This document shows positions 3,288 through 29,482 of a stretch of DNA of 33,404 nucleotides, one piece after another. Every line of letters starts with the position of its first letter. Within the stretch, counting starts at the first letter, position 1. Under the pieces are notes generated by a model. The model was given only the letters and a program-made list of their open reading frames with translations. It made no database searches and was not told where the DNA came from. The translations under genes were made by a program, and so were the position numbers. Source of the DNA: Candidatus Micrarchaeota archaeon. Lineage in GTDB: Archaea; Micrarchaeota; Micrarchaeia; Micrarchaeales; CABMGC01. The DNA is taken from the NCBI GenBank assembly GCA_030040335.1, contig JASHTX010000059.1, positions 1 to 33,404 on the forward strand. The letters run 5' to 3'.

Positions 3288-3836
3288 CTAGGTCCCGTTG
3301 TCATTTACCCAGATGAAAGCGGCTGTCTTCCTGCCGTTGGTCACGCCCCTGGGCCTTGCCACCTTCCTGAAGCCCATCTTGAGGTGGAAGAGCTCTGTGG
3401 CCCTGTTATACGGAGAGGCCCAGCTTCCGGCTACTACCTTCATACCCTTGGCCTTCTTGAAAATAGTCTCGTACAGTTTTTTACCTATGGACCTGCCCTG
3501 CGAGCTGCGCAATACGCCGACCTGGTCAATGAAGATGGACTCAGGCTTGGAGTAGTGGTTCAGCACATACGCCTGCAGATAATTGTGCGGCTTTGTGTAG
3601 CTGGTGGGATAACCCATAACGAACCCGACTACTTTTCCTTTCTCAACCGCCACAAGAAAATATCCGGAATACTTGATTGCCTCCAGATATGATTCTGCAC
3701 GCACGTCTCCCCTCAAAAAACCCCTCGAGGTGTGCTCATTCGTTATCTCTCCGACTACCTTCAACGACTTTCCGACGTTAGAGATCGTTCTGGCATCGGA
3801 TGGTTTGGCTCTCCGGATCGTTATGCGTGCTTTCAT
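3288..3836 (-). CDS. GNAT family N-acetyltransferase
   Basis: N-terminal IRRAKPSD; acetyl-CoA motif A IDQVGVLRSSQGRSIGKKLY; motif B NRATELFHLKMGF; start overlaps the upstream Lrp-like stop (ATGA). Confidence 0.88.
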   Translation of the reverse strand: MKARITIRRAKPSDARTISNVGKSLKVVGEITNEHTSRGFLRGDVRAESYLEAIKYSGYFLVAVEKGKVVGFVMGYPTSYTKPHNYLQAYVLNHYSKPESIFIDQVGVLRSSQGRSIGKKLYETIFKKAKGMKVVAGSWASPYNRATELFHLKMGFRKVARPRGVTNGRKTAAFIWVNDNGT

Positions 3837-4879
3837 TCAATGCCTTCGAGGATCGACTGCCAGTTGATTACCCTGTAAACCTTGCTGGTATCAAGGCTCC
3901 TGAGCGGGAGGTCTCCGATCAGCACCTTGTCGATCACGCCGCGCTCGCTCTTAGGCTTTTCAGCGACCATGTCCTCCTTGTAGTAGTTCCAGAACCTCTT
4001 CATCGCGGTCTCCAGGTCGTCGAAGACGCCTACCCCGAAGAAATCTCCGCTACCTACAAGCTGGTTCACGATCACGTATCTGCTTACCAGAGAATATTCG
4101 TCATCTGTCCTGAAGAAATCCCTCGTCGACCTCGCGTCCTGCTCGAACCTGCTCGAGATTATGTACTTGCCAAAGATCGTCATGACCGTGAACGGATCCA
4201 GCTTCTCCATCACGAGCGTGAACCTCTTTATGTAGCCGAGCTCGACGAGCTTCTTGAAGTTGTAGGCTATGGTGTTGAAGTGCATGCCGGTCTCCTTGGA
4301 AAGCTGCTGGAACGTGGCGCGCGAGTTCTTGTTGAGCAGCAAGAGCAGCGTCTTGTACTTCTCGGGCAGGTCGAGGCGCTCCAGGAGCTCGTTCCGCAAG
4401 GGATAGAAGCCGAGAGGCCTCCAGGCGACCTCTGACGGGTTCCACGAAACCCCGTAGTCTGCGAGGTGAATCTGCAGCCCGCGGTCCCAGTGGACATAGT
4501 CGTCCCTAGACTGCGCGTTTGCGTATATGAACATGTCGTACGAGCCCTTGATCGTCGCAACTATCTGCGGTATGTGAAAGCGCGAGAAGACCTGCTTGAG
4601 GTAATCGTCGCTCGGCCTCTTGTTGAACTTGATGATTATTATGTGCGGGTTGAACAGGCCGAGCTTGTCCTCGTCCAGCTCCAGCGTGTACCTTATGCCA
4701 AGCTCCTTCTCAAGCCTGGCAAGCCTGTCCTTGGCCGTCTTCCTGGAGAGACCGACGCTCTTCGCCAGCTCTGACATCGTTATCCTGGAGTTTTCGGAGA
4801 GCAGGCGGAGCATCTTCCTGGAAAGAAGGTTGTACTTGTCGTTGAACTGGCTCTTGAACTCACGACCAGGCTTTGGCAT
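3833..4879 (-). CDS. Double-length Lrp/AsnC-family transcriptional regulator (two wHTH+RAM-like units), paralog 1
   Basis: Two AsnC-type HTH segments: LRLLSENSRITMSELAKSVGLSRKTAKDRLARLEKELGI and LLLLNKNSRATFQQLSKETGMHFNTIAYNFKKLVELGYIKRFT; RAM-like GSYD motif. Confidence 0.88.
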   Translation of the reverse strand: MPKPGREFKSQFNDKYNLLSRKMLRLLSENSRITMSELAKSVGLSRKTAKDRLARLEKELGIRYTLELDEDKLGLFNPHIIIIKFNKRPSDDYLKQVFSRFHIPQIVATIKGSYDMFIYANAQSRDDYVHWDRGLQIHLADYGVSWNPSEVAWRPLGFYPLRNELLERLDLPEKYKTLLLLLNKNSRATFQQLSKETGMHFNTIAYNFKKLVELGYIKRFTLVMEKLDPFTVMTIFGKYIISSRFEQDARSTRDFFRTDDEYSLVSRYVIVNQLVGSGDFFGVGVFDDLETAMKRFWNYYKEDMVAEKPKSERGVIDKVLIGDLPLRSLDTSKVYRVINWQSILEGIE

Positions 4880-4994
4880 GCTTATGCTTCGCAGCGCAGA
4901 TTTTTTAACCTATTACAAAGTAACAAAAACTTCAGTAAAAGTGGTATTTTTCGGTTAGTATATAAGCAGCCTTTCCCAAGTGTAAGCGAGAAGG

Positions 4995-6230
4995 ATGAAG
5001 ATTCTGACGCGCGGTTACCTGTACATGGTGCTTTCCCTGATTCTGGGGGCGCTCTTCCCTGTAGTGCTAGTCTTTGCCAAAGGCGTCGACATCTTCGAGT
5101 TCTTCATGTTGAGCTATCTCCTGGCAATACCGTTCGCCTTGCTGCTGGTAATAGCCTCGAAGAGGTGGAAGACATTCACTGCCTACGTGACTGACCCTAA
5201 GAGGCTCGGAATAATAACGCTCATAGGCCTGCTCACATACGCGTCGGTGGGCATAGGACTCTTCTACGCAGAGCAGTTCGTGAGTGCGTCGCTGGCCACT
5301 GTGGTCTTCAGGACATCGCCGCTGCTCATGCTGCTGCTCCTGCCCACAGTGCTGAACGAGAGGCTGACCAAAAGCCAGATTGCAGCGCTGTGTCTAGCGT
5401 TTGCGGGCATATACATAGCGCTGAGCGGAGGGCAACTTTTCGGCATATTCGGCAACGCGAACATATCGATCGTGCTCTTCCTGGTTGCAGCGGCTTTTGC
5501 CTATGCGCTCGGAGCCGTGCTGATAAGAAAATACGTCTTCAACCTGGAGAGTGCGATGCTGATATTCAACATGGCCCTCTTCGTGATCTTTGCAGCGCTC
5601 TACGTTGCGACAGGCGTGAACTCGAGCCAGCTGCAGCTTTCTCAGCTCGGGGCGATATTCTATGTAGGCATCTTCACGAACATCTGCAGCTTCTACATGT
5701 ACTTCAATTCGCTCAGGATACTCAAGATGACAGTTGCCACTAACTTCCTCTTCCTCTCCCCGTTCCTCACGCTGCTCTTCGCAAGCGTGCTGCTGGGCGA
5801 GGTAATACAACCGTACTACGTGGTCATAGCGCTGCTGGTCGGGGCCGGCCTCATCATCCAGAGGTATGACAGGGTAGGAGGCAGCTACCGCACAAGGGAT
5901 TCCAAGAGACTCAGGAACTTCGCAATATTCGACGTCACCGGGGCTTTCGTCAACACCGGTGAGCTTGCAATCCAACATGCAATCCAGAAGGGCGGCAGGG
6001 TCCTGGCGCTCAAGCTCGATGCCGGGCAGAAGCAGAAGGTAAACTCGCTGATATCAGACGGTGGACACTCAGGCGTTTTTACAGATGAGCATCCGCGAAT
6101 AACCGAAGAATCCACTTTCGTCAAGGAGATAGTGGGGGCCAAAGAGAATGAGTTCGTGGTAATGAAAGCAGGAGATACTGAGGAAGGAGAGCGCTTCTTC
6201 GAGACGCTTTCAGATGCAATGGGAGTGTAA
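4995..6230 (+). CDS. EamA/DMT-family transporter with a soluble C-terminal domain resembling the GAD (GatE/AspRS insertion) domain
   Basis: About 10 hydrophobic helices with EamA motifs (SASLATVVFRTSPL..LNERLT; FLSPFLTLLFASVLLGE), then a ~100-aa tail FDVTGAFVNTGELAIQHAIQKGGRVLALKL...GVFTDEHPRITEE. Confidence 0.85.
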   Translation: MKILTRGYLYMVLSLILGALFPVVLVFAKGVDIFEFFMLSYLLAIPFALLLVIASKRWKTFTAYVTDPKRLGIITLIGLLTYASVGIGLFYAEQFVSASLATVVFRTSPLLMLLLLPTVLNERLTKSQIAALCLAFAGIYIALSGGQLFGIFGNANISIVLFLVAAAFAYALGAVLIRKYVFNLESAMLIFNMALFVIFAALYVATGVNSSQLQLSQLGAIFYVGIFTNICSFYMYFNSLRILKMTVATNFLFLSPFLTLLFASVLLGEVIQPYYVVIALLVGAGLIIQRYDRVGGSYRTRDSKRLRNFAIFDVTGAFVNTGELAIQHAIQKGGRVLALKLDAGQKQKVNSLISDGGHSGVFTDEHPRITEESTFVKEIVGAKENEFVVMKAGDTEEGERFFETLSDAMGV

Positions 6231-6447: not shown

Positions 6448-6927
6448 CTAGAGCTCTTTCTCGCACCAGTACCGCATCTCTCCTTCTCCGTAGTAGTTGA
6501 AGACCTCCTTGGCGATCCTGTAACCCTGCTTCCTGAAAAACGCAATGCCGGTCTTGTTCGTCTTGTTTGTTGCCAGGCCGATCTTCTTCCTGCCGAGGTT
6601 TATCGCCTTCTCCTCAGCGAAGCGCATCATCTCGCTCCCTATTCCCCTGCGCCAGTGCGGTGGGTGGACGCATATTCTGAGCACCTCAAACTCGTCGGTC
6701 TCGGGCTTGTCGACCAGAGAGATGTAGGAGATGTAGTTGCCTGCCTTGTCCTTCCAGAGCCAGGTCTCCGAATCGTGCTCCACAGTCAGGTGGGTGAGCA
6801 GATCTTCCTTCGTCTCCAGGTGAAGGAGAGGGTGGTGGGCCTTCGAGACCTCTGCGTCGAAAGCGTGCAGCGAATCCAGGTTTTCCTTCACATCGAGCTT
6901 GCTTACATTGAGTCCGTCTTCGCTCAT
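6448..6927 (-). CDS. GNAT family N-acetyltransferase (RimI-like)
   Basis: VLRICVHPPHWRRGIGSEMM, LATNKTNKTGIAFFRKQGY, NYYGEGE. Confidence 0.9.
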   Translation of the reverse strand: MSEDGLNVSKLDVKENLDSLHAFDAEVSKAHHPLLHLETKEDLLTHLTVEHDSETWLWKDKAGNYISYISLVDKPETDEFEVLRICVHPPHWRRGIGSEMMRFAEEKAINLGRKKIGLATNKTNKTGIAFFRKQGYRIAKEVFNYYGEGEMRYWCEKEL

Positions 6928-7200: not shown

Positions 7201-7323
7201 TGGAGCTAGACAGGTTGACAATCTGTAACCTGTCCTCTATGCATGTGTGCTATAACAGGGCAATCAGCTTGTTTTTTGTGGAAAACGCAACTTCTAAAGG
7301 CTTTGCGTGCAATAGATATGCAT
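7201..7323 (+). promoter_or_regulatory. Structured 5' leader / inverted repeat upstream of Lrp paralog 2
   Basis: GACAGGTT(7209-16)/AACCTGTC(7227-34) perfect IR around ACAATCTGT; ATGCATGT(7239-46) can pair with ATATGCAT(7316-23), covering the start codon; AT-rich TATA-like ATATAATAAAAA at 7179-7190. Confidence 0.45.
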
Positions 7324-8374
7324 GGAAGAGGAGTCGCTGGAGTTCTCGAGCAGGTTCAATGAGAAGTACAGCCTGGTATCAAGGAAAATGATACGCATGC
7401 TGTCAGAGAACTCGAGGCTGACCAGCACTGAGATTGCCGGCAGGCTTGGGATATCAAGGCAGGCGGTCGCGAAGAGGCTCAGCAGGTTGGAGAAGGAATT
7501 TGGGATCAGGTACGTGCCTGAGTTCAACGAGGACAAGCTTGGCATATCGAACCCTCACATCGTAATGGTGAAGTTCAGGGAGAAACCAAGCCAATCGTAT
7601 CTTGCAGACATCTTCTCCCGCTCTTACATAACTCAGGTCGTGGTGTCTGTGAAGGGTACCTACGACCTCCTCATATACGCAAACTCGCTTTCGAGGGACG
7701 CGTACATACACTGGGACAAGGGAATGCAGATACTGCTCGCAGACTACGAGCCCTCATGGCGCTCTTCTGACATAGGGCATGCGCAGCTCGGCTTCTATCC
7801 TTTGCGGAACGATCTCCTAGGCAGGGTCTCCATTCCAGAGGAGTACAAGACGATACTGAAGGCCCTGAACACCGATGCACGCGCATCATTCGAGTCGATC
7901 TCCAAGCAGTCTGGCATGCGCGTAAACAGGGTTGTCTACAACTTCAAGAAGCTGCTGAAGCTCGGTTACATAAAGCGCTTCACGCTTGCGATGACAAAAC
8001 TGGAGAATGCGGTGATAATGACGCACTTCGCCAAGTATAATATCTCTAGGACTTTCGAGAATGATGCAAAGGGGACCAGACCGGTCTACAGGGCCGACGA
8101 CCAGTACCCCTTGGTCAGTAGATACATAATAACAAATCAGCTCGTGGGCAGCTACGACTTCTTCAGCGCAGGAGTCTTCGACAGCCCGGAGGTAGCGTAC
8201 AAGAGGAACATCGCCTGGTTCAGGCACCAGCTGAAACCCGAGCGGCCGAAGCTGGTATACGGAATAGTGGACAAGGTCATCGTAGGCAATCTGCCTGTGA
8301 GGAGCGTAGACACATACAAGGAATACGATGCGATAGTGTGGTCGCCTGATTTTAGGAAGGAGGAACATCTCTGA
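7322..8374 (+). CDS. Double-length Lrp/AsnC-family transcriptional regulator, paralog 2
   Basis: Colinear with 3833..4879 (FNEKYSLVSRKMIRMLSENSR, KGTYDLLIYAN, LGFYPLRN, LGYIKRFTL, NQLVGS); two HTH units. Confidence 0.88.
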   Translation: MEEESLEFSSRFNEKYSLVSRKMIRMLSENSRLTSTEIAGRLGISRQAVAKRLSRLEKEFGIRYVPEFNEDKLGISNPHIVMVKFREKPSQSYLADIFSRSYITQVVVSVKGTYDLLIYANSLSRDAYIHWDKGMQILLADYEPSWRSSDIGHAQLGFYPLRNDLLGRVSIPEEYKTILKALNTDARASFESISKQSGMRVNRVVYNFKKLLKLGYIKRFTLAMTKLENAVIMTHFAKYNISRTFENDAKGTRPVYRADDQYPLVSRYIITNQLVGSYDFFSAGVFDSPEVAYKRNIAWFRHQLKPERPKLVYGIVDKVIVGNLPVRSVDTYKEYDAIVWSPDFRKEEHL

Positions 8375-9929
8375 GTTCGACCGAATCATTTCCTATCACT
8401 ATGACCTTCGCATATTTTTCACCTCTCCTGCGCAGCATTCTTTCCGTGTCTTCAGGCCTTTTCAGCCCTGTCTCGTACTCTATCGCGATCTTCTCGCCGT
8501 CCTTGTAGGCAATCACGTCGGGTCCGTAGGCATTATTGTAAACCATGTTTCTGATGCCGTTCTCGGTGAGATACTTGCTTATCAGGCTGACCATGATGTC
8601 GTGCTCTGCGCTGTTCCTCGGCATTGCGATATACCATGCACCTTCAAAGGGTGGCTCGGACACAACATGGTATCCGATTATTCCGGTTTTTATCAACTCG
8701 ATCAGCGACCTCGTCACTTCTTCCTGTTCGAATCCCTCGTTTCTGAGTCTCTCTTCGAGCTCGCGTTTGCTCACTATCCCCTTTGCCAGATCAACTATCC
8801 GGTGGACAGGGTCCCTGATTGCTGGCCTAAATCGCAGGCACCTAACTATTTTAGGACTCCTGTCATATGCCAGCTGCACCAGCGCGCAGCCGCGCTGGAG
8901 CTCCCTCAGCGCCTTCCTCACTTCGATGAACCTGTTGTACTCAGTGCCGGCTGCAATTATGTTGGCGATGTAGTTCTGCTCTTCAGGTTCCCTCTGCGTG
9001 AATGCGATCAGCGTAGCTGCGTTGCTCCTTATTTCCTTGTCCAGCGCCTTTGCCCGCTGCGCTATGGCGATCATGCCTAGGCCATACTTCCTGCCCTCTG
9101 CAACCAACCTTGCCACGACCGGGCTGTCCTGGAGTTTTTCCGCCTCGTCTATGACAATATAGAACCTCCTTTTGCTTCCTGATGCGCTGCCCTGCAGGAG
9201 GTTTGCATATATCTTCCTTAGTATACTCTCCATATAGAGCGCCTGTGCTTCTGAGCTATGCAGACTTGCGAGCGAGAAGACAGACCTGGAGTTCAGCAGG
9301 CTGCCAACGCTGACGCTCCTCTGGAACTGCTCTCCGGCTACTGCGAGCAGGCGCTTCTCAAGCGCGTCGAGCACGTTCTGCTCCGGCTTTGATCTTGACC
9401 TGCGCTTGAAGACCTTTATCGTGTAAAGCAGGCTGTGCATATTCGGCGTGCGCTCCTTGACAGCGCTTATCCAGTACGTGTATGCGATGCACCTGTAGAG
9501 CGTGCCAGCCTGCACCTCTCCGAGATGGAGCACACGCTTGAACATGCCGGTTATCTCTGATGTGCGTTCCCTCTCTGTTAGGCCGTCAAGGTCAAAGATA
9601 TTCACAGCGTGTATACTCGCGTCGTAGATCACGGCATGAATATCTTTCGCACCCTCCACATACTCTGCGTGCGGGTCCAGTACAAGAAAGTTTGCTCCGT
9701 GCCCTGCTAGCTGCCTGAGGATCAGCTTGCATGCGTTGCTCTTGCCGGCCCCACTCTCACCGGTTATCATCACGTGCCGGTTCGTACTTTTGTCCAGGTT
9801 AAGCCTCATGGATTTGAAGTACCTTCTTTGCCATTGCCATCTCAAAAGACCAAAGCGCCTCACTAGGCGCAACTCGCGATGGACTTTGCCGAGAGTTATA
9901 GAGTTTCTGTTTTTGAAAAAAGTAAACAT
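8352..9929 (-). CDS. HerA/FtsK-VirB4-like ATPase (DUF87-type) with C-terminal PD-(D/E)xK-like domain
   Basis: RHVMITGESGAGKS (Walker A), VLDPHAEY, IVIDEAE (Walker B), EGRKYGLGMIAIAQR; C-terminal EHD...GPDVIAYKDGEKIAIEYETG; start placed at ATG 9929 to avoid overlap with the divergent gene. Confidence 0.85.
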   Translation of the reverse strand: MFTFFKNRNSITLGKVHRELRLVRRFGLLRWQWQRRYFKSMRLNLDKSTNRHVMITGESGAGKSNACKLILRQLAGHGANFLVLDPHAEYVEGAKDIHAVIYDASIHAVNIFDLDGLTERERTSEITGMFKRVLHLGEVQAGTLYRCIAYTYWISAVKERTPNMHSLLYTIKVFKRRSRSKPEQNVLDALEKRLLAVAGEQFQRSVSVGSLLNSRSVFSLASLHSSEAQALYMESILRKIYANLLQGSASGSKRRFYIVIDEAEKLQDSPVVARLVAEGRKYGLGMIAIAQRAKALDKEIRSNAATLIAFTQREPEEQNYIANIIAAGTEYNRFIEVRKALRELQRGCALVQLAYDRSPKIVRCLRFRPAIRDPVHRIVDLAKGIVSKRELEERLRNEGFEQEEVTRSLIELIKTGIIGYHVVSEPPFEGAWYIAMPRNSAEHDIMVSLISKYLTENGIRNMVYNNAYGPDVIAYKDGEKIAIEYETGLKRPEDTERMLRRRGEKYAKVIVIGNDSVELRDVPPS

Positions 9930-10022
9930 AATTTCACCAATGCTGCCCGACTTTAGAGGGTGAACATCGCAGCGGGCAGGAATAAAGCCAACCCTTTTAT
10001 ATCGGGAAAAGACAATGCCAGC

Positions 10023-10733
10023 ATGGAAAAGGGCAGGTCGCAAGAGGGCAGGACGTCTGAATTCATGGGTGTGAAGTACCTGCGGCGCCAGCACGAGCTG
10101 GAGCTCATAGGCACCAACATCTACACCTCTGGAGCTGCACATTCTGGCATCGGAAACATTCACGAATTACTTGACAGCGAGTGGATAAAGGATACGGGAG
10201 GCAGGAGCGGCAAGAAAGCAACGTCAGAGTACCAGTACCTCTGTTTCCCGCCCAGCCATCAACTCAGGACAGGGCTTGTCAGCGAGGAGGTGCTTGATGA
10301 CATAAAGAGCAATGGGAAAACGGTGCTGAGCGTGGGCGCTGGCTACGCCTTCACCGAACGAGTGTTGGTCAAGAAGCTTGGAGTGAATGCGGAGCAGATA
10401 ACGCTGGCAGACCGCGCGAACGTTATGCCGAAGGGTTTCAAGACCCTTCTCTTCGACATGGAAGAGGAATGGAAGCTCGGAGGCAAGAAGTATGACTACA
10501 TACTCTTCGCCCAATCCATAATACTGCCGAACGAGAGGTCGAAAAGGATGGGCAGGATACTAGAGAAGGCATACGCTGCGCTGAACGATGAAGGGCAGAT
10601 CAGAATCACCGGCACGTTCAGCCCAGAAGAAATAACAAACCTCAGAATATGGCTCGGAAAGAGGCATCCTGAAGCCGAGCTTGCAACAGACGACGAATTG
10701 TACCTCATTGTGATAAGGAAGGGCATACGGTGA
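10023..10733 (+). CDS. Class I SAM-dependent methyltransferase
   Basis: Motif I VLSVGAGYA, ITLAD, YDYILF, AYAALNDEGQIRI; TATA TTTTATAT at ~9995 supports ATG 10023. Confidence 0.75.
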   Translation: MEKGRSQEGRTSEFMGVKYLRRQHELELIGTNIYTSGAAHSGIGNIHELLDSEWIKDTGGRSGKKATSEYQYLCFPPSHQLRTGLVSEEVLDDIKSNGKTVLSVGAGYAFTERVLVKKLGVNAEQITLADRANVMPKGFKTLLFDMEEEWKLGGKKYDYILFAQSIILPNERSKRMGRILEKAYAALNDEGQIRITGTFSPEEITNLRIWLGKRHPEAELATDDELYLIVIRKGIR

Positions 10734-10920: not shown

Positions 10921-11595
10921 ATGACAAAAGCAGTGAAGCAAAGGGAAAAGGGAAGCGAAGACCTGAGCGCGTTCCTTACGAAGTACCCTGTGTTCAACGC
11001 CAGACAAGAAGAAGACAAGATGCACCTGCTGGCGAGATACGATCGCATAAAGGCGCTCTGGAGGGCGGACACAGAGCCGGATCTGAGGGCAAGGGGTAAG
11101 GATACAGTGACGCTCATGTATATGGTCAGCGCCTTCAAGCCTCCGAATGCAATCACAGTTGACCTCTCTTATCCCGATCAGGAGTGGCCAAACGCCCATC
11201 ATGAAGTTGACATCCACGTGACTTTCAGTTATGCGGGCAGGAAGAAGACTGTCTCTATGGGGCCTTTCCCAACTGTTGGGGAGCTTTCGCTGCCAGAGAA
11301 AGCGCGAATTTGGATGGCATTGAAACCCAAGAGCGATGACTCATCTGAAGCGGTCCAGCACGTGGCAGAGGTGATGGTGGGAAGAGACAAGAACGCAGGG
11401 GACCAGTTGTATCCGGAGTTCGATGACCATCAGGGGGCGATGACCACAAGCCTTGAGGCGCTTGGTTATAAGAAGGTAAGCGGGCCCGTAATGGTAAAGA
11501 ATACCGGCAGCCCAATAGGGCATGATTTCAGGTATCGGTTCGTGGATGCTCGAGATCTGCAGCGGTTGAGAAGGGCGAGACCGGGCGGGGATTGA
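10921..11595 (+). CDS. Hypothetical protein (224 aa)
   Basis: Long ORF, GGAGGA SD upstream, AT-rich promoter region; no recognisable motif. Confidence 0.7.
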   Translation: MTKAVKQREKGSEDLSAFLTKYPVFNARQEEDKMHLLARYDRIKALWRADTEPDLRARGKDTVTLMYMVSAFKPPNAITVDLSYPDQEWPNAHHEVDIHVTFSYAGRKKTVSMGPFPTVGELSLPEKARIWMALKPKSDDSSEAVQHVAEVMVGRDKNAGDQLYPEFDDHQGAMTTSLEALGYKKVSGPVMVKNTGSPIGHDFRYRFVDARDLQRLRRARPGGD

Positions 11596-12140: not shown

Positions 12141-12752
12141 ATGACTGGCACAAAAGAATCAGATAGTAAGGTATTGGACGTCCGCAGCAGGGCCATACTT
12201 GCCAACAGAGGCGTGGTCGGACTGGCGCACATACAGAAAGACCAGATACCAGACCAACTCAGCGAACCCTACATGAAGATGCTCAACAGGACCGATAGGA
12301 AGGAAGGCGATGCGGGGCAATTCGGCCTAGGGATGGCCCATTCGGTGATAGTGCATCTGGGCGCCCTGCCTGCGCCAAAACGCGTTATGCTCATGATCGA
12401 GGAGGACGCAAACCAGAAAACCGTGAATTTCTTCGCTGCAGTGCTCTACGGGCAGGAGGACTTTAACACAGTCCTCTCCTATTACGAGTTTTCATCGGGC
12501 AATGAAAAAGGGCAGGGTCTGAAGACTGTAGATCTTAAGGAGGAGAAGCCGGCACCTGGAAACGCGCCGCTCTATGCGCTGGTTATAGGACCATACAAGC
12601 TGGCCTCTGATGCATACCGCGACAGCATGGCGGTTGAGGAGGACAAGATGCTTGCGATTAGAAGATTTCGGGAAGAGTTTGGGCTGTCGAGCAAAGCGCA
12701 GGTCGAGATACCAAGCCCTGCAACTGAGCCTAGAGCTGAGCACCCGAACTGA
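12141..12752 (+). CDS. Hypothetical protein (203 aa)
   Basis: Long ORF with typical composition; convergent with nfo with a short overlap. Confidence 0.65.
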   Translation: MTGTKESDSKVLDVRSRAILANRGVVGLAHIQKDQIPDQLSEPYMKMLNRTDRKEGDAGQFGLGMAHSVIVHLGALPAPKRVMLMIEEDANQKTVNFFAAVLYGQEDFNTVLSYYEFSSGNEKGQGLKTVDLKEEKPAPGNAPLYALVIGPYKLASDAYRDSMAVEEDKMLAIRRFREEFGLSSKAQVEIPSPATEPRAEHPN

Positions 12753-13605: not shown

Positions 13606-14340
13606 TCACTCTTGCTTCCCGGAATTGCCCGCCGGAAGCCGGTTCGCCTTGATCACTGAGCTGAGCTCGGCAATCTCGGTCCCGGTGACATTGAGATATT
13701 CAACAAGGTACTCTTGCAGTCCTCTGTACTCCTTCTTTCCGTATCCGCTGGCATAGATGAATGCACCGACAAGCGGCATCAGAGGTGCCGAATCGTCTCC
13801 GATTACGGCCCTGAGATTCGTCTTTCTCACCAGCGACACAGAGTCCTGAATCAACTCGCGCGTTAGCGCATAAGCATAGCCCACAGCCTCTATGCCTTCA
13901 ACCAGTTTCTGCGCGGTCGTCTCTATCCACCTTTCTTCTTTAATCTGCTGCTTTTCCTGCCCCCATGTCTGCCTTCCGGGTTTGTGACGATTCTTCTCTG
14001 TTACGGGCTCAATCTGGCTTGCTGCAGGGTCGGCTTTCTCAGTACTGACTGCTACTTTGGCCTGTACAGGTTTTGGCGCGCTCGCTGCCCTGGTCTGCTC
14101 CAGCTCCTCGAGCCGGTCCACCTCGCTCCTCAACTTTGCGAGCCTTATCAGATTCTCGACTCTCTCGCTGGCGTCCTTGTATGGGACGCGCTCTGGATCC
14201 AGCCAGTCCTTGCCAGTCTGGACCACGTCTCCGCATACATTGCAGACGCCAACCCCGCGCTTGTCGTACTTGACTGAGCCGGAGTTGCACTTCAGACACG
14301 GAGTCGGGCTTCTCAGCTTATACTTGTTGTTTTCACTCAT
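13606..14340 (-). CDS. TFB-like protein: TFIIB-type Zn ribbon plus a single cyclin-like repeat
   Basis: CLKCNSGSVKYDKRGVGVCNVCGDVV resembles TFB Zn ribbon; C-terminal LVGAFIYASG...LQEYLVEYLNVTGTEI resembles a TFB cyclin repeat; ATG 14340 with GGTGTG SD. Confidence 0.65.
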   Translation of the reverse strand: MSENNKYKLRSPTPCLKCNSGSVKYDKRGVGVCNVCGDVVQTGKDWLDPERVPYKDASERVENLIRLAKLRSEVDRLEELEQTRAASAPKPVQAKVAVSTEKADPAASQIEPVTEKNRHKPGRQTWGQEKQQIKEERWIETTAQKLVEGIEAVGYAYALTRELIQDSVSLVRKTNLRAVIGDDSAPLMPLVGAFIYASGYGKKEYRGLQEYLVEYLNVTGTEIAELSSVIKANRLPAGNSGKQE

Positions 14341-14453
14341 TTTCACACCGGCGCGGGTATGTGCATTACCAGCAAGTCCGCGTTTTCCCGAGAGCAAGTA
14401 GATACTGTTTTCCGCTTATTTATGCATTGACTTTGGATCCTGAGCAGATGCGG

Positions 14454-15680
14454 TCAGGCTTTGAGCGCGACCTTCGAGCCGGTCTTGCTCATGGTAATCG
14501 CCTCTGCTGTATCGCGTATCACGTGGTTCCTCACCTGCGCCTCGTTAGATGCGCGCTTGAGCAGGCCGCTCTCGTACTCAGTTCCCTTGCCCGCAAGGTA
14601 GATGTAAGCGAAGGTCATCGCACGCGTAGATGGCGGGTTCTTGCCCAGCAGTTCGCTGAGCGTGGCAAAATCGGTTTCAGAGGCCAGTTTCATTGCCGGA
14701 CCTCTCAGTTCCTCTGGCAGGCTGCCGAGCTGCACCTTGCCTATTTCATCGATGACCTCTTTCTTGTCCCGCCCTGTCTTTAGCCCTTCTGCTACATCTC
14801 TTCCCATAGCCTGGCTTTGCTCTCGTGCATCAGGCTGAACTGGAGAACTATCATCTCGCAAATGCGGAGGTTCTGGAGGCTTGGGTTCCCTGGAATCGGG
14901 GATATCTGGTTGAATAGGAGGCAGCGGTTGCCCCGCTTCAGAGTATGCGGGAACAGTCTGCGCATGCTTGCTGGCTGCCCTGTGGGATCTGTTATTGACC
15001 GTAGTGGTATGCAGGCCGAGCCCATCCAGCTCGATTTTCAGTATGCGGAAAGCGGATTCGATGGTTCCTGTAGAAAAGCCGGAGGCAGATGCGAAATTTA
15101 CCATCGTCTTGCCCTCCTGTTCCATGAGAGAAGCGGCGTACATGCAAACGGCCGTGACCTTGACCGGACTAGTATTAATTGCGAAAAATGCCTTCCTTCC
15201 CTCGGCCTTGTCGATGATCTCCATCGTCCGCTGCGCTGTCCTCTCCGACACGCCAGTTTGGAAACTTAGTCTCTTGACAAAGTCCTTGGGTCCCAGATCC
15301 TTCTCTGTAAGGCTTAACAGAGAATGCAGCTCATTGTAGTCGCTCCCGAGTTTGGCCCTGTTCTCGCCAAAATCCCCGGGAAACATTCCAGCAAACTCCG
15401 GGAGCGTTATGGGAATTCCGATCACCCTTATTGCGGAATAGACGGCAACATTGGCTGCTCGTTGGTACGACCGCGTAGACGCGAAGTTCCTATCAAGGCC
15501 TTCCATGTAGTGGCGCGCGGCCAGCGTTTTCACTTCTCGTGCATCGCCGAGCCCGTAAACCTCGAAGAGCGTATCCAGCGCCGCGAAAGGCTGAGTCAGG
15601 TATGGATGGTTTGAAGGTATTTCAGATATGCCTGCCGACGTCGCATTTTGTCGCATGGCTGAGTCTGAATCTCCTGACAT
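14454..15680 (-). CDS. TFB-like protein: cyclin-repeat core without Zn ribbon, Pro-rich linker, additional cyclin-like C-terminal region
   Basis: RSYQRAANVAVYSAIRVIGIPITLPEF, PKDFVKRLSFQTGVS, SPVKVTAVCMYAASLMEQEGKTMVNFASASGFSTGTIE align by eye to TFB repeats 1 and 2; no CxxC. Confidence 0.75.
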   Translation of the reverse strand: MSGDSDSAMRQNATSAGISEIPSNHPYLTQPFAALDTLFEVYGLGDAREVKTLAARHYMEGLDRNFASTRSYQRAANVAVYSAIRVIGIPITLPEFAGMFPGDFGENRAKLGSDYNELHSLLSLTEKDLGPKDFVKRLSFQTGVSERTAQRTMEIIDKAEGRKAFFAINTSPVKVTAVCMYAASLMEQEGKTMVNFASASGFSTGTIESAFRILKIELDGLGLHTTTVNNRSHRAASKHAQTVPAYSEAGQPLPPIQPDIPDSREPKPPEPPHLRDDSSPVQPDAREQSQAMGRDVAEGLKTGRDKKEVIDEIGKVQLGSLPEELRGPAMKLASETDFATLSELLGKNPPSTRAMTFAYIYLAGKGTEYESGLLKRASNEAQVRNHVIRDTAEAITMSKTGSKVALKA

Positions 15681-29386: not shown

Positions 29387-29396
29387 CTATCCGAGC

Positions 29397-29471
29397 GGGC
29401 TCGTAGCTCAGCTTGGATAGAGCAACAGCCTTCTAAGCTGAAGGTCGCGGGTTCAAATCCCGCCGGGCCCG
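29397..29471 (+). tRNA. tRNA-Arg (anticodon TCT), no intron, CCA not encoded
   Basis: Acceptor GGGCTCG/CGGGCCC, D stem GCTC/GAGC, anticodon loop CTTCTAA, T arm GCGGG-TTCAAAT-CCCGC, discriminator G. Confidence 0.95.
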
Positions 29472-29482
29472 TTGGTGATTTC

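Follow-up and report, generated by a model that had tools for sequence, protein, structure and literature searches.

Introduction

In the passages cited here, descriptions of the GAD-type domain so far concern only insertions in GatE and in bacterial-type aspartyl-tRNA synthetase (AspRS), and its role is debated (PMC2943598, PMC3367201). The relevant sections on GatE describe a pocket, formed by the insertion domain with the catalytic domain, that has been modelled to hold ND-GluRS (the glutamyl-tRNA synthetase of the non-discriminating type) and from which AspRS is sterically excluded (PMC2943598, PMC2330236); GatDE is described there as binding ND-GluRS without tRNA (PMC2943598). For AspRS, the domain is treated as an addition next to the active site, and the role given to it is speculative and poorly defined (PMC3367201, in the part cited). 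On these accounts of GatE and AspRS the GAD-type domain would be a protein-contact module. Here we analyze a GAD-like domain at the predicted cytoplasmic C-terminus of an EamA/DMT family transporter, encoded on a stretch of 33,404 nucleotides from a Candidatus Micrarchaeota archaeon (contig JASHTX010000059.1; this whole stretch is referred to as the window). A first-pass annotation, made from the sequence letters, had noticed the domain. We find that the tail shares fold and detectable ancestry with the GatE insertion domain, that it is conserved throughout a Micrarchaeota subfamily of transporters, and that the gene is paired with that of a tandem Lrp/AsnC-type regulator.

Architecture of the fusion protein

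The gene and the parts of its product are as follows.

4995..6230, + strand: whole gene, EamA/DMT transporter with C-terminal GAD-like domain, 411 residues plus stop (open reading frame list, translation)
4995..5867, + strand: membrane domain, residues 1-291, two EamA repeats, ten helices, N and C termini inside
5868..5924, + strand: basic juxtamembrane linker, residues 292-310 (charge, low conservation, low model confidence)
5925..6218, + strand: GAD-like (GatE insertion-domain-like) cytoplasmic domain, residues 311-408 (profile, hhalign, Foldseek, VIA-align)

The proposal that a soluble tail of about 100 residues follows the last helix of an EamA transporter was borne out. The frame at 4995-6230 is present with the residues that had been quoted, and residues 292-411 form a soluble tail of 120 residues after the membrane domain; base 5919 belongs to codon 309 and base 6227 closes the last sense codon, codon 411. 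Pfam EamA (PF00892) matched residues 1-291 in two stretches with 93.4 bits (E = 1.9e-26, cut-off 28.2), placing the protein in this family, and both EamA halves were also recovered in a six-frame search. The full-length AlphaFold model, obtained with a 32-row alignment as input, had a mean predicted local distance difference test (pLDDT) value of 86.4 and a predicted template modelling score (pTM) of 0.81, with membrane helices at residues 3-26, 33-54, 58-92, 98-120, 126-144, 157-180, 184-206, 215-242, 245-267, and 273-290.

Five Lys/Arg residues lie in the loop 55-70 of the membrane domain, and the linker, modelled with pLDDT values of 56-70, carries a mean net charge of +2.7 over its 19 residues across 32 proteins. 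Both termini, and hence the tail, are assigned to the cytoplasm because of the Lys/Arg-rich loop and the basic stretch that follows helix 10. Neither GatB_N nor a part of a class II synthetase was found in the 411-residue protein in Pfam and NCBIfam scans; the domain is C-terminal to the EamA part rather than inserted inside the catalytic body of a tRNA-handling enzyme.

Relationship of the tail to GatE and AspRS

The first-pass annotation had held, from the archaeal motif, that the tail resembles the GAD insertion domain of GatE and AspRS, and had named a profile search as one check. For the single sequence the signal was suggestive yet stayed under the cut-off, as the tail scored 14.4 bits against Pfam GAD (PF02938; E = 0.047, gathering cut-off 23.4). 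Other single-sequence comparisons gave E = 4.8e-4 against NCBIfam gatE_arch (tail 20-112 onto profile 279-384), E = 0.052 against GatE in the PDB (1zq1_C), and 16 of 43 residues identical to GatE of the same genome (E = 0.001 for that one comparison). The whole protein is not a GatE, scoring 18.5 bits with TIGR00134 / PRK04028 against a cut-off of 319.55, and the genome encodes a separate true GatE (569.9 bits). When the single tail was run against a library of 1.84 billion proteins, none of the 46 matches at E <= 1e-3 was of GatE length. GatE is thus reached by profiles only, not by the single tail sequence.

With profiles the relationship became clear. An alignment of 32 tails, from the window and 31 homologues, matched GatE of P. 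abyssi (1zq1_C) at E = 9.4e-9 and 38.4 bits (profile 19-122 onto residues 285-401) and GatE of M. thermautotrophicus (2d6f_C) at E = 2.7e-7 and 33.6 bits among PDB sequences; the next match stood at 0.17, and mitochondrial AspRS was matched over its GAD insertion at E = 0.39 and 13.8 bits. Comparison by hhalign of the 32 tails with 18 GatE insertion domains of the same lineage gave 97.5% (E = 5.6e-12, 95 columns), and 97.4% on repetition. Taken tail by tail, PRK04028 (GatE) was matched by 13 of the 32 at E <= 0.01 (best 3.6e-7), TIGR00134 by six, each AspRS model by one, and Pfam GAD by eight at E <= 1 (best 3.8e-5). A six-frame profile search of the window's genome returned three places only, namely the tail itself, a second and partial tail-bearing paralogue on another contig (G000:C37:1-552), and GatE (E = 0.0022). 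The profile scored this GatE lower than that of P. abyssi (17.3 against 38.4 bits). Across 301 genomes of the phylum the profile separated a strong tier of 47-155 bits, in frames of about 410-470 codons, from a second tier of 28-39 bits made up of GatE genes, with frames of about 600-650 codons.

The structural comparisons agree. The tail model (mean pLDDT 86.7, pTM 0.79) runs strand, two short helices, strand, helix, strand, helix, strand, helix, preceded by the linker as its residues 1-19 at low confidence. A Foldseek search of the PDB, also named beforehand as a check, recovered both expected proteins and nothing else close: ranks 1-17 were all GatE (1zq1_C, 2d6f) or bacterial-type AspRS, with 1zq1_C at E = 4.9e-5 (TM 0.68, root-mean-square deviation (rmsd) 2.8 Å, 26% identity), AspRS at E values from 3.5e-4 to 0.09, and the first match beyond these two proteins at E = 0.22 with probability 0.05. 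VIA-align, a Foldseek-independent structural scan of 48,161 chains, gave GatE a Z of 11.9 (109 residues, rmsd 3.3) and T. thermophilus AspRS a Z of 10.0, ahead of a pterin-dehydratase-like protein as next fold at 6.4. A second structural comparison again placed only GatE or AspRS in its top 14 entries (Z 9.3-12.2), with DCoH next at 6.0. The predicted tail model therefore falls within the GAD-type fold. In the ESM Atlas's own model of a homologue (residues 305-411), GatE and AspRS models made up 7 of the 10 nearest rows. Collectively, the agreement of profile, hhalign, Foldseek, and VIA-align confirms a resemblance to the GatE/AspRS GAD domain beyond chance, at the profile or structure level only.

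Between the two possible sources, the tail is closer to GatE than to AspRS both in identity after structural alignment (26-28% versus 12-19%) and in profile score (38.4 and 33.6 bits versus 13.8 bits), and it probably descends from GatE rather than from AspRS. The central deletion relative to GatE that had been read from the sequence is real, as the tail row has 18 gap columns in the profile alignment, including the invariant central loop of GatE. Five positions are conserved in both (tail/own-GatE residue: D313/D284, F318/F289, T363/S348, E372/E361, and G393/G382), and the tail has a conserved set of its own, F312, A317, R335, A338, F375, E399, and F402. None of the 16 positions that are invariant only in the GatE insertion domain is kept (E322, N324, R328, L329, G330, E332, S334, Y336, K338, G341, G344, H347, E350, Y355, D375, and F377). 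The tail core is also acidic: its net charge averages -5.4 and is below zero in 30 of 32 proteins, compared with a mean of -2.2 for the GatE domain. The scaffold was thus retained and the GatE-specific surface replaced. The loss of the GatE loop, together with the tail's own conserved set, implies that the tail no longer does the job of GatE, and the replaced surface and the acidity weigh against both a GatE-like role and nucleic-acid binding.

Conservation and distribution of the fusion

Of 41 related small genomes of 0.5-1.1 Mb, 25 have the same architecture (the tally includes one unpublished genome, G038), at up to four copies each, and nearly all matches spanned residues 1 to about 408. 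For further comparison we retained 31 of 52 match rows from other genomes, leaving out partial rows, G038, and further paralogues; these 31 homologues come from 22 other genomes and every one carries the tail. In the 1.84-billion-protein library, 25 of the 46 matches to the single tail were proteins of 410-427 residues with the match at the C-terminus and 21 were shorter. Thirteen of the short ones were inspected, and 11 begin within the membrane part, i.e., they are fragments, leaving two without a membrane part (P0028, P0045), which may be either free-standing domains or fragments cut off at a contig edge. The passage from helix 10 into the tail is spanned by contig pieces (5560-5963, 5762-5941, and 5844-6009) that come from three public runs belonging to one study; these runs may include the source sample and are not independent of it. 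The homologues and the bridging pieces both support the join as genuine, and the search for other EamA+GAD architectures that had been suggested thus returned the same fusion many times over.

The window derives from a fragmented genome of 103 contigs, which could have favored an artefact such as a chimeric assembly, gene read-through, or chance similarity. This explanation is refuted by the 31 homologues from 22 other genomes, the 25 full-length library matches of 410-427 residues, the bridging pieces, and the E values of 1e-8 to 1e-12, and we consider it next to impossible.

The alignment shows the tail to be under purifying selection, with conservation equal to that of the membrane part. 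Pairwise identity averages 33.5% for the domain, 32.8% for the membrane part, and 25.2% for the linker, and columns of at least 80% conservation make up 13.3%, 7.9%, and 0% of these regions. Five columns are invariant over the 32 full-length proteins, four of them in the tail (D313, F318, G393, and E399). The polar residues D313, R335, E372, and E399 are kept at 91% or more across three clades, D313 and E399 in every row. These clades, of 19, 6, and 7 rows, are well supported in a quick maximum-likelihood IQ-TREE tree of 32 rows, and all carry the tail. Each contains members from two taxonomic families, so the fusion and its duplications predate the family split.

Among the 301 genomes of the phylum, a best match at E <= 1e-12 was obtained for 39 of the 54 that belong to the window's family, 32 of the 74 in the sister family, and 2 of the 7 in one further family (counts that include the unpublished G038 and G215). 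Outside those families there are GatE-level matches only, with a few ambiguous cases (G097, G098:C31, and G224), and the fusion is restricted to Micrarchaeota. The nearest named record is a metagenome-assembled genome of Candidatus Micrarchaeota, 54% identical. Relatives carry the public name 'EamA/DMT family transporter' [Candidatus Micrarchaeota / Micrarchaeia archaeon], with PF00892 as the only precomputed Pfam entry in 29 of 29 matches; the current annotation hides the domain. Short tail-like remnants with in-frame stops were seen at G001:C3:26906-27106, G095:C36:81-284, and G078:C8:43867-44067; that of G001 stands directly after gatE, with an intact copy on another contig.

EamA genes number about 9-10 in the window's genome, and apart from the fusion gene those that were found complete are frames of 285-335 residues. 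This number is unusually high for a 0.9-Mb genome (the genes are on contigs C43, C99, C1, C51, C74, C10, C49, and C102). The nearest ESM Atlas clusters consist of EamA proteins of about 295 residues.

Consistent with the first-pass statement that the fusion was not known from the literature, we found no paper that describes an EamA + GAD-type fusion or the EamA transporters of Micrarchaeota, in a search that did not cover supplementary tables. Such genes may be listed among the Mia14 transporters in Supplementary Table 3 of PMC5498576.

A tandem Lrp/AsnC regulator beside the fusion gene

Upstream of the fusion gene lie a divergent regulator gene and a shared intergenic region.

3833..4879, - strand: tandem Lrp/AsnC-type regulator, 348 residues, two winged helix-turn-helix (wHTH) units with RAM-like parts (Pfam HTH_24, HTH_AsnC; divergent neighbor)
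4880..4994, no strand: intergenic region between the divergent genes; contains a conserved box (about 11 nucleotides, at about 4916-4926) and a TATA-like element at 4959-4965

The regulator matched an HTH_AsnC-type model at E = 1.6e-15, and each of its halves has matches among Lrp/AsnC structures that extend over part of the RAM effector domain. Its profile aligned with LrpA (1i1g) over positions 16-121 and with PH1519 over 167-236 and 67-126, pointing to two Lrp/AsnC units in tandem; the order of wHTH and then RAM-type effector domain places the product among the Lrp/AsnC (FFRP) proteins. In an alignment of 12 orthologous intergenic regions, A38, T42, and C45 were invariant and C37, A43, A46, and A47 were conserved at 90% or more, and the box at 4916-4926 is a candidate operator. 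The TATA-like element lies about 30 nucleotides upstream of the ATG, a spacing that would fit a leaderless archaeal gene.

A member of this regulator family stands beside the fusion gene at 27 of 27 loci, comprising the window, all 12 of a first set, and all 14 of a second set drawn from all three clades. In the second set, 13 regulators are directly adjacent and one is separated by a 164-codon open reading frame; nine pairs are divergent, four are convergent with overlapping ends, and one is co-directional. None of five tail-less EamA loci of the window's genome has such a regulator within 1.5 kb. At the genome level, the regulator was matched at E <= 1e-114 in 25 of 25 fusion-bearing genomes, versus 2 of 16 genomes without the fusion at E <= 1e-90 (G020, G037). 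Prediction of a complex between regulator and tail returned scores of 0.31 and 0.18 against a mark of 0.32, and is evidence for neither side.

Several further observations concern this module. One paralogue clade (L057, L058, L059, L061) has the regulator and transporter convergent, with 3' ends that overlap by 8-37 nucleotides. The window holds a second tandem Lrp/AsnC regulator at 7322-8374 (+ strand), 54% identical to the first, without an EamA-GAD partner. On either side of the module stands a GNAT acetyltransferase gene, at 3288-3836 (- strand) and 6448-6927 (- strand), and a GNAT orthologue also adjoins the regulator in G005.

Adjacency of the fusion gene and gatE in relatives

The window's genus is represented by 13 genomes, and in eight of them (G002, G004, G005, G006, G007, G008, G009, and G011) the orthologue abuts gatE tail-to-tail. 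The distances between the stops are 3, 3, 156, 154, 155, 143, 151, and 143 nucleotides. In one further genome of the genus the two genes are 2.1 kb apart, and one more carries, next to gatE, the decayed remains of a tail with two stops. The pairing was not seen in the other genera examined nor in the window's genome; there, the gene after the transporter encodes a GNAT protein, and the contig with gatE ends inside gatE. Chance adjacency is unlikely because GatE is the only other gene type of the genome with this domain; the adjacency nevertheless counts as a single event because it was inherited within one genus. On the tree, five changes were needed and 18 of 500 shuffles were as low, and this quick tree leaves the ancestral state undecided. 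The adjacency could be the trace of an origin by local duplication, or could reflect a functional link.

Possible role of the tail

We infer that the tail is a GatE-derived regulatory or partner-docking module of a transporter for an amino acid or a related metabolite, and we would put the chances of this reading at even. The compact alpha/beta domain, probably derived from GatE, is carried on a basic linker of about 20 residues at the cytoplasmic C-terminus, where it would regulate the transporter or dock a partner at the inner membrane face, as other appended cytoplasmic sensor domains do. It may tune or couple the transport of an amino acid or related metabolite, and the fusion gene and the tandem Lrp/AsnC regulator make up a two-gene module. 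The effectors of Lrp/AsnC proteins are usually amino acids. Micrarchaeota belong to the tiny archaea that need many amino acids from a host, and a cultured Micrarchaeon lacks the synthesis of 12 of the 20 amino acids, according to the part of the source cited (PMC5498576).

Several points weigh against this proposal. Scores against models of named exporters are far under their cut-offs (63.3 against 230.2 bits for TIGR00950 (2A78), 26.9 against 300 bits for YddG NF050091), so that no substrate can be assigned. An Lrp/AsnC gene next to a transporter is a common and unspecific arrangement, regulators without an adjoining fusion also occur (at 7322-8374 of the window and at two other loci, L080 and L081), and the genomes are kin, so the co-occurrence counts overstate the case. 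While the full-length pTM of 0.81 hints at a fixed tail position, packing of the tail on the transporter is not established, and nothing in this analysis shows a ligand, a partner, or an effect of the tail on transport.

Another account would make the tail a membrane-tethered docking site that couples the transporter to the tandem regulator or to a tRNA-charging enzyme; on balance we find this unlikely. With the regulator as partner, transport state would control transcription, as in a 'trigger transporter'. The pairing holds at 27 of 27 loci regardless of orientation and was duplicated as a unit into three clades, and it is absent from the five tail-less loci and nearly so from the genomes without the fusion (25 of 25 against 2 of 16). 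However, ordinary cis-regulation of the neighboring transporter gene explains the adjacency equally well, members of the regulator family also stand alone, and there is no direct sign of contact; docking of the regulator seems distinctly improbable. Recruitment of ND-GluRS or GatDE, which would channel an imported amino acid into aminoacyl-tRNA synthesis, could draw on the part that the GatE insertion domain has in the modelled ND-GluRS pocket and on the tRNA-independent binding of ND-GluRS by GatDE, both as given in the cited part of PMC2943598, and on the gatE neighbor in 8 of 13 genomes of the genus, 3-156 nucleotides away. That pocket also requires the catalytic domain, though; all 16 GatE-only positions and 18 columns are missing from the tail, and the adjacency is convergent, confined to one genus, and not found in the window's genome or other genera. 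We hold this recruitment to be very unlikely.

The remaining readings ask less of a protein partner. A purely structural or oligomerization appendage, with neither sensing nor docking, is unlikely. DCoH/pterin dehydratase, the nearest other fold (Z of about 6), oligomerizes, and even in AspRS the function of the GAD domain is poorly defined in the passages cited (PMC3367201). Against this, D313, R335, E372, and E399 are kept at 91% or more and the tail has more highly conserved columns than the membrane domain; such polar conservation over three old clades is more than a passive tag usually needs. The first-pass annotation had offered a regulatory or an RNA-binding module. The regulatory half stands as plausible and would correspond to our proposal, but the RNA-binding half found no support and is the most remote of these biological alternatives, at a slim chance. 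GatE and AspRS, the two proteins in which the domain is known, both act on tRNA, and a weak similarity to KH domains was seen (Z of about 5-6). Such Z values are in the range of a common arrangement, however, and the tail core, at a net charge of -5.4 on average and below zero in 30 of 32 tails, is acidic, with the conserved GatE loop and all 16 GatE-only positions gone. The cited parts of the GAD literature point to protein docking and show no RNA binding by the GAD domain itself (PMC2943598, PMC2330236, PMC3367201).

If the docking account were true, it would provide the first defined stand-alone function for the GAD fold: with the regulator, transport occupancy would set transcription, and with a tRNA-charging enzyme an amino acid scavenged from the host would be passed straight to translation. 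The fusion offers a tractable system for asking what the GAD fold binds, and a lineage-specific module of transporter and regulator that is likely to matter for dependence on a host.

Other features of the window

The remaining annotated features are listed here.

8352-10163, - strand: HerA/TrwB-like ATPase (Pfam scan)
14454-15680, - strand: 408-residue protein with a single TFIIB repeat match (Pfam scan)
29396-29472, + strand: tRNA-Arg(TCT), the only RNA gene found in the window

Four open reading frames of 203-263 residues (9960-10733, 10921-11595, 12141-12752, and 13606-14397) matched no Pfam family.

Comparison with known systems

The closest described relative of the tail is the insertion domain of archaeal GatE (1zq1, 2d6f), with which it shares its fold, detectable common ancestry (Z of 12.2 and 10.5, 26-28% identity over 102-109 residues), and conserved D, F, S/T, E, and G positions. 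In GatE, however, the domain is inserted in a soluble enzyme, whereas here it is C-terminal on a membrane transporter; the tail is also 18 columns shorter and more acidic, keeps none of the 16 positions invariant in GatE alone, and shows a conserved set of its own. The GAD domain of bacterial-type AspRS (1c0a, 4wj4, 4ah6) has the same fold (Z of 9.3-11.2 over 110-115 residues), but the sequence relation is marginal (profile E = 0.39, 12-19% identity). Archaeal-type AspRS lacks a GAD domain, according to the passage cited (PMC3367201), and the search of the window's genome with the tail profile found no AspRS GAD domain.

On the transporter side, the protein shares two EamA repeats and ten helices with ordinary EamA/DMT transporters of about 285-335 residues, e.g., those of the YddG model NF050091, which differ in having no cytoplasmic domain. 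In SulP/SLC26 transporters, the STAS domain is a soluble domain from another system fused after the last helix, and this appended cytoplasmic domain may serve as a working analogy for how the tail acts; the folds and the transporter families are unrelated. Lrp/AsnC regulators pair with amino-acid exporter genes, and here too a regulator of this family adjoins a transporter gene. The present case differs in that the regulator is a fused tandem of two units and only the tail-bearing subfamily shows the pairing. A domain otherwise described as an enzyme insertion thus occurs here as an independent and strongly conserved transporter module, in a family that has expanded and been long kept in Micrarchaeota; two known domains are joined in a combination that is new, specific to the lineage, and evidently functional, and that has a conserved regulator for a partner.

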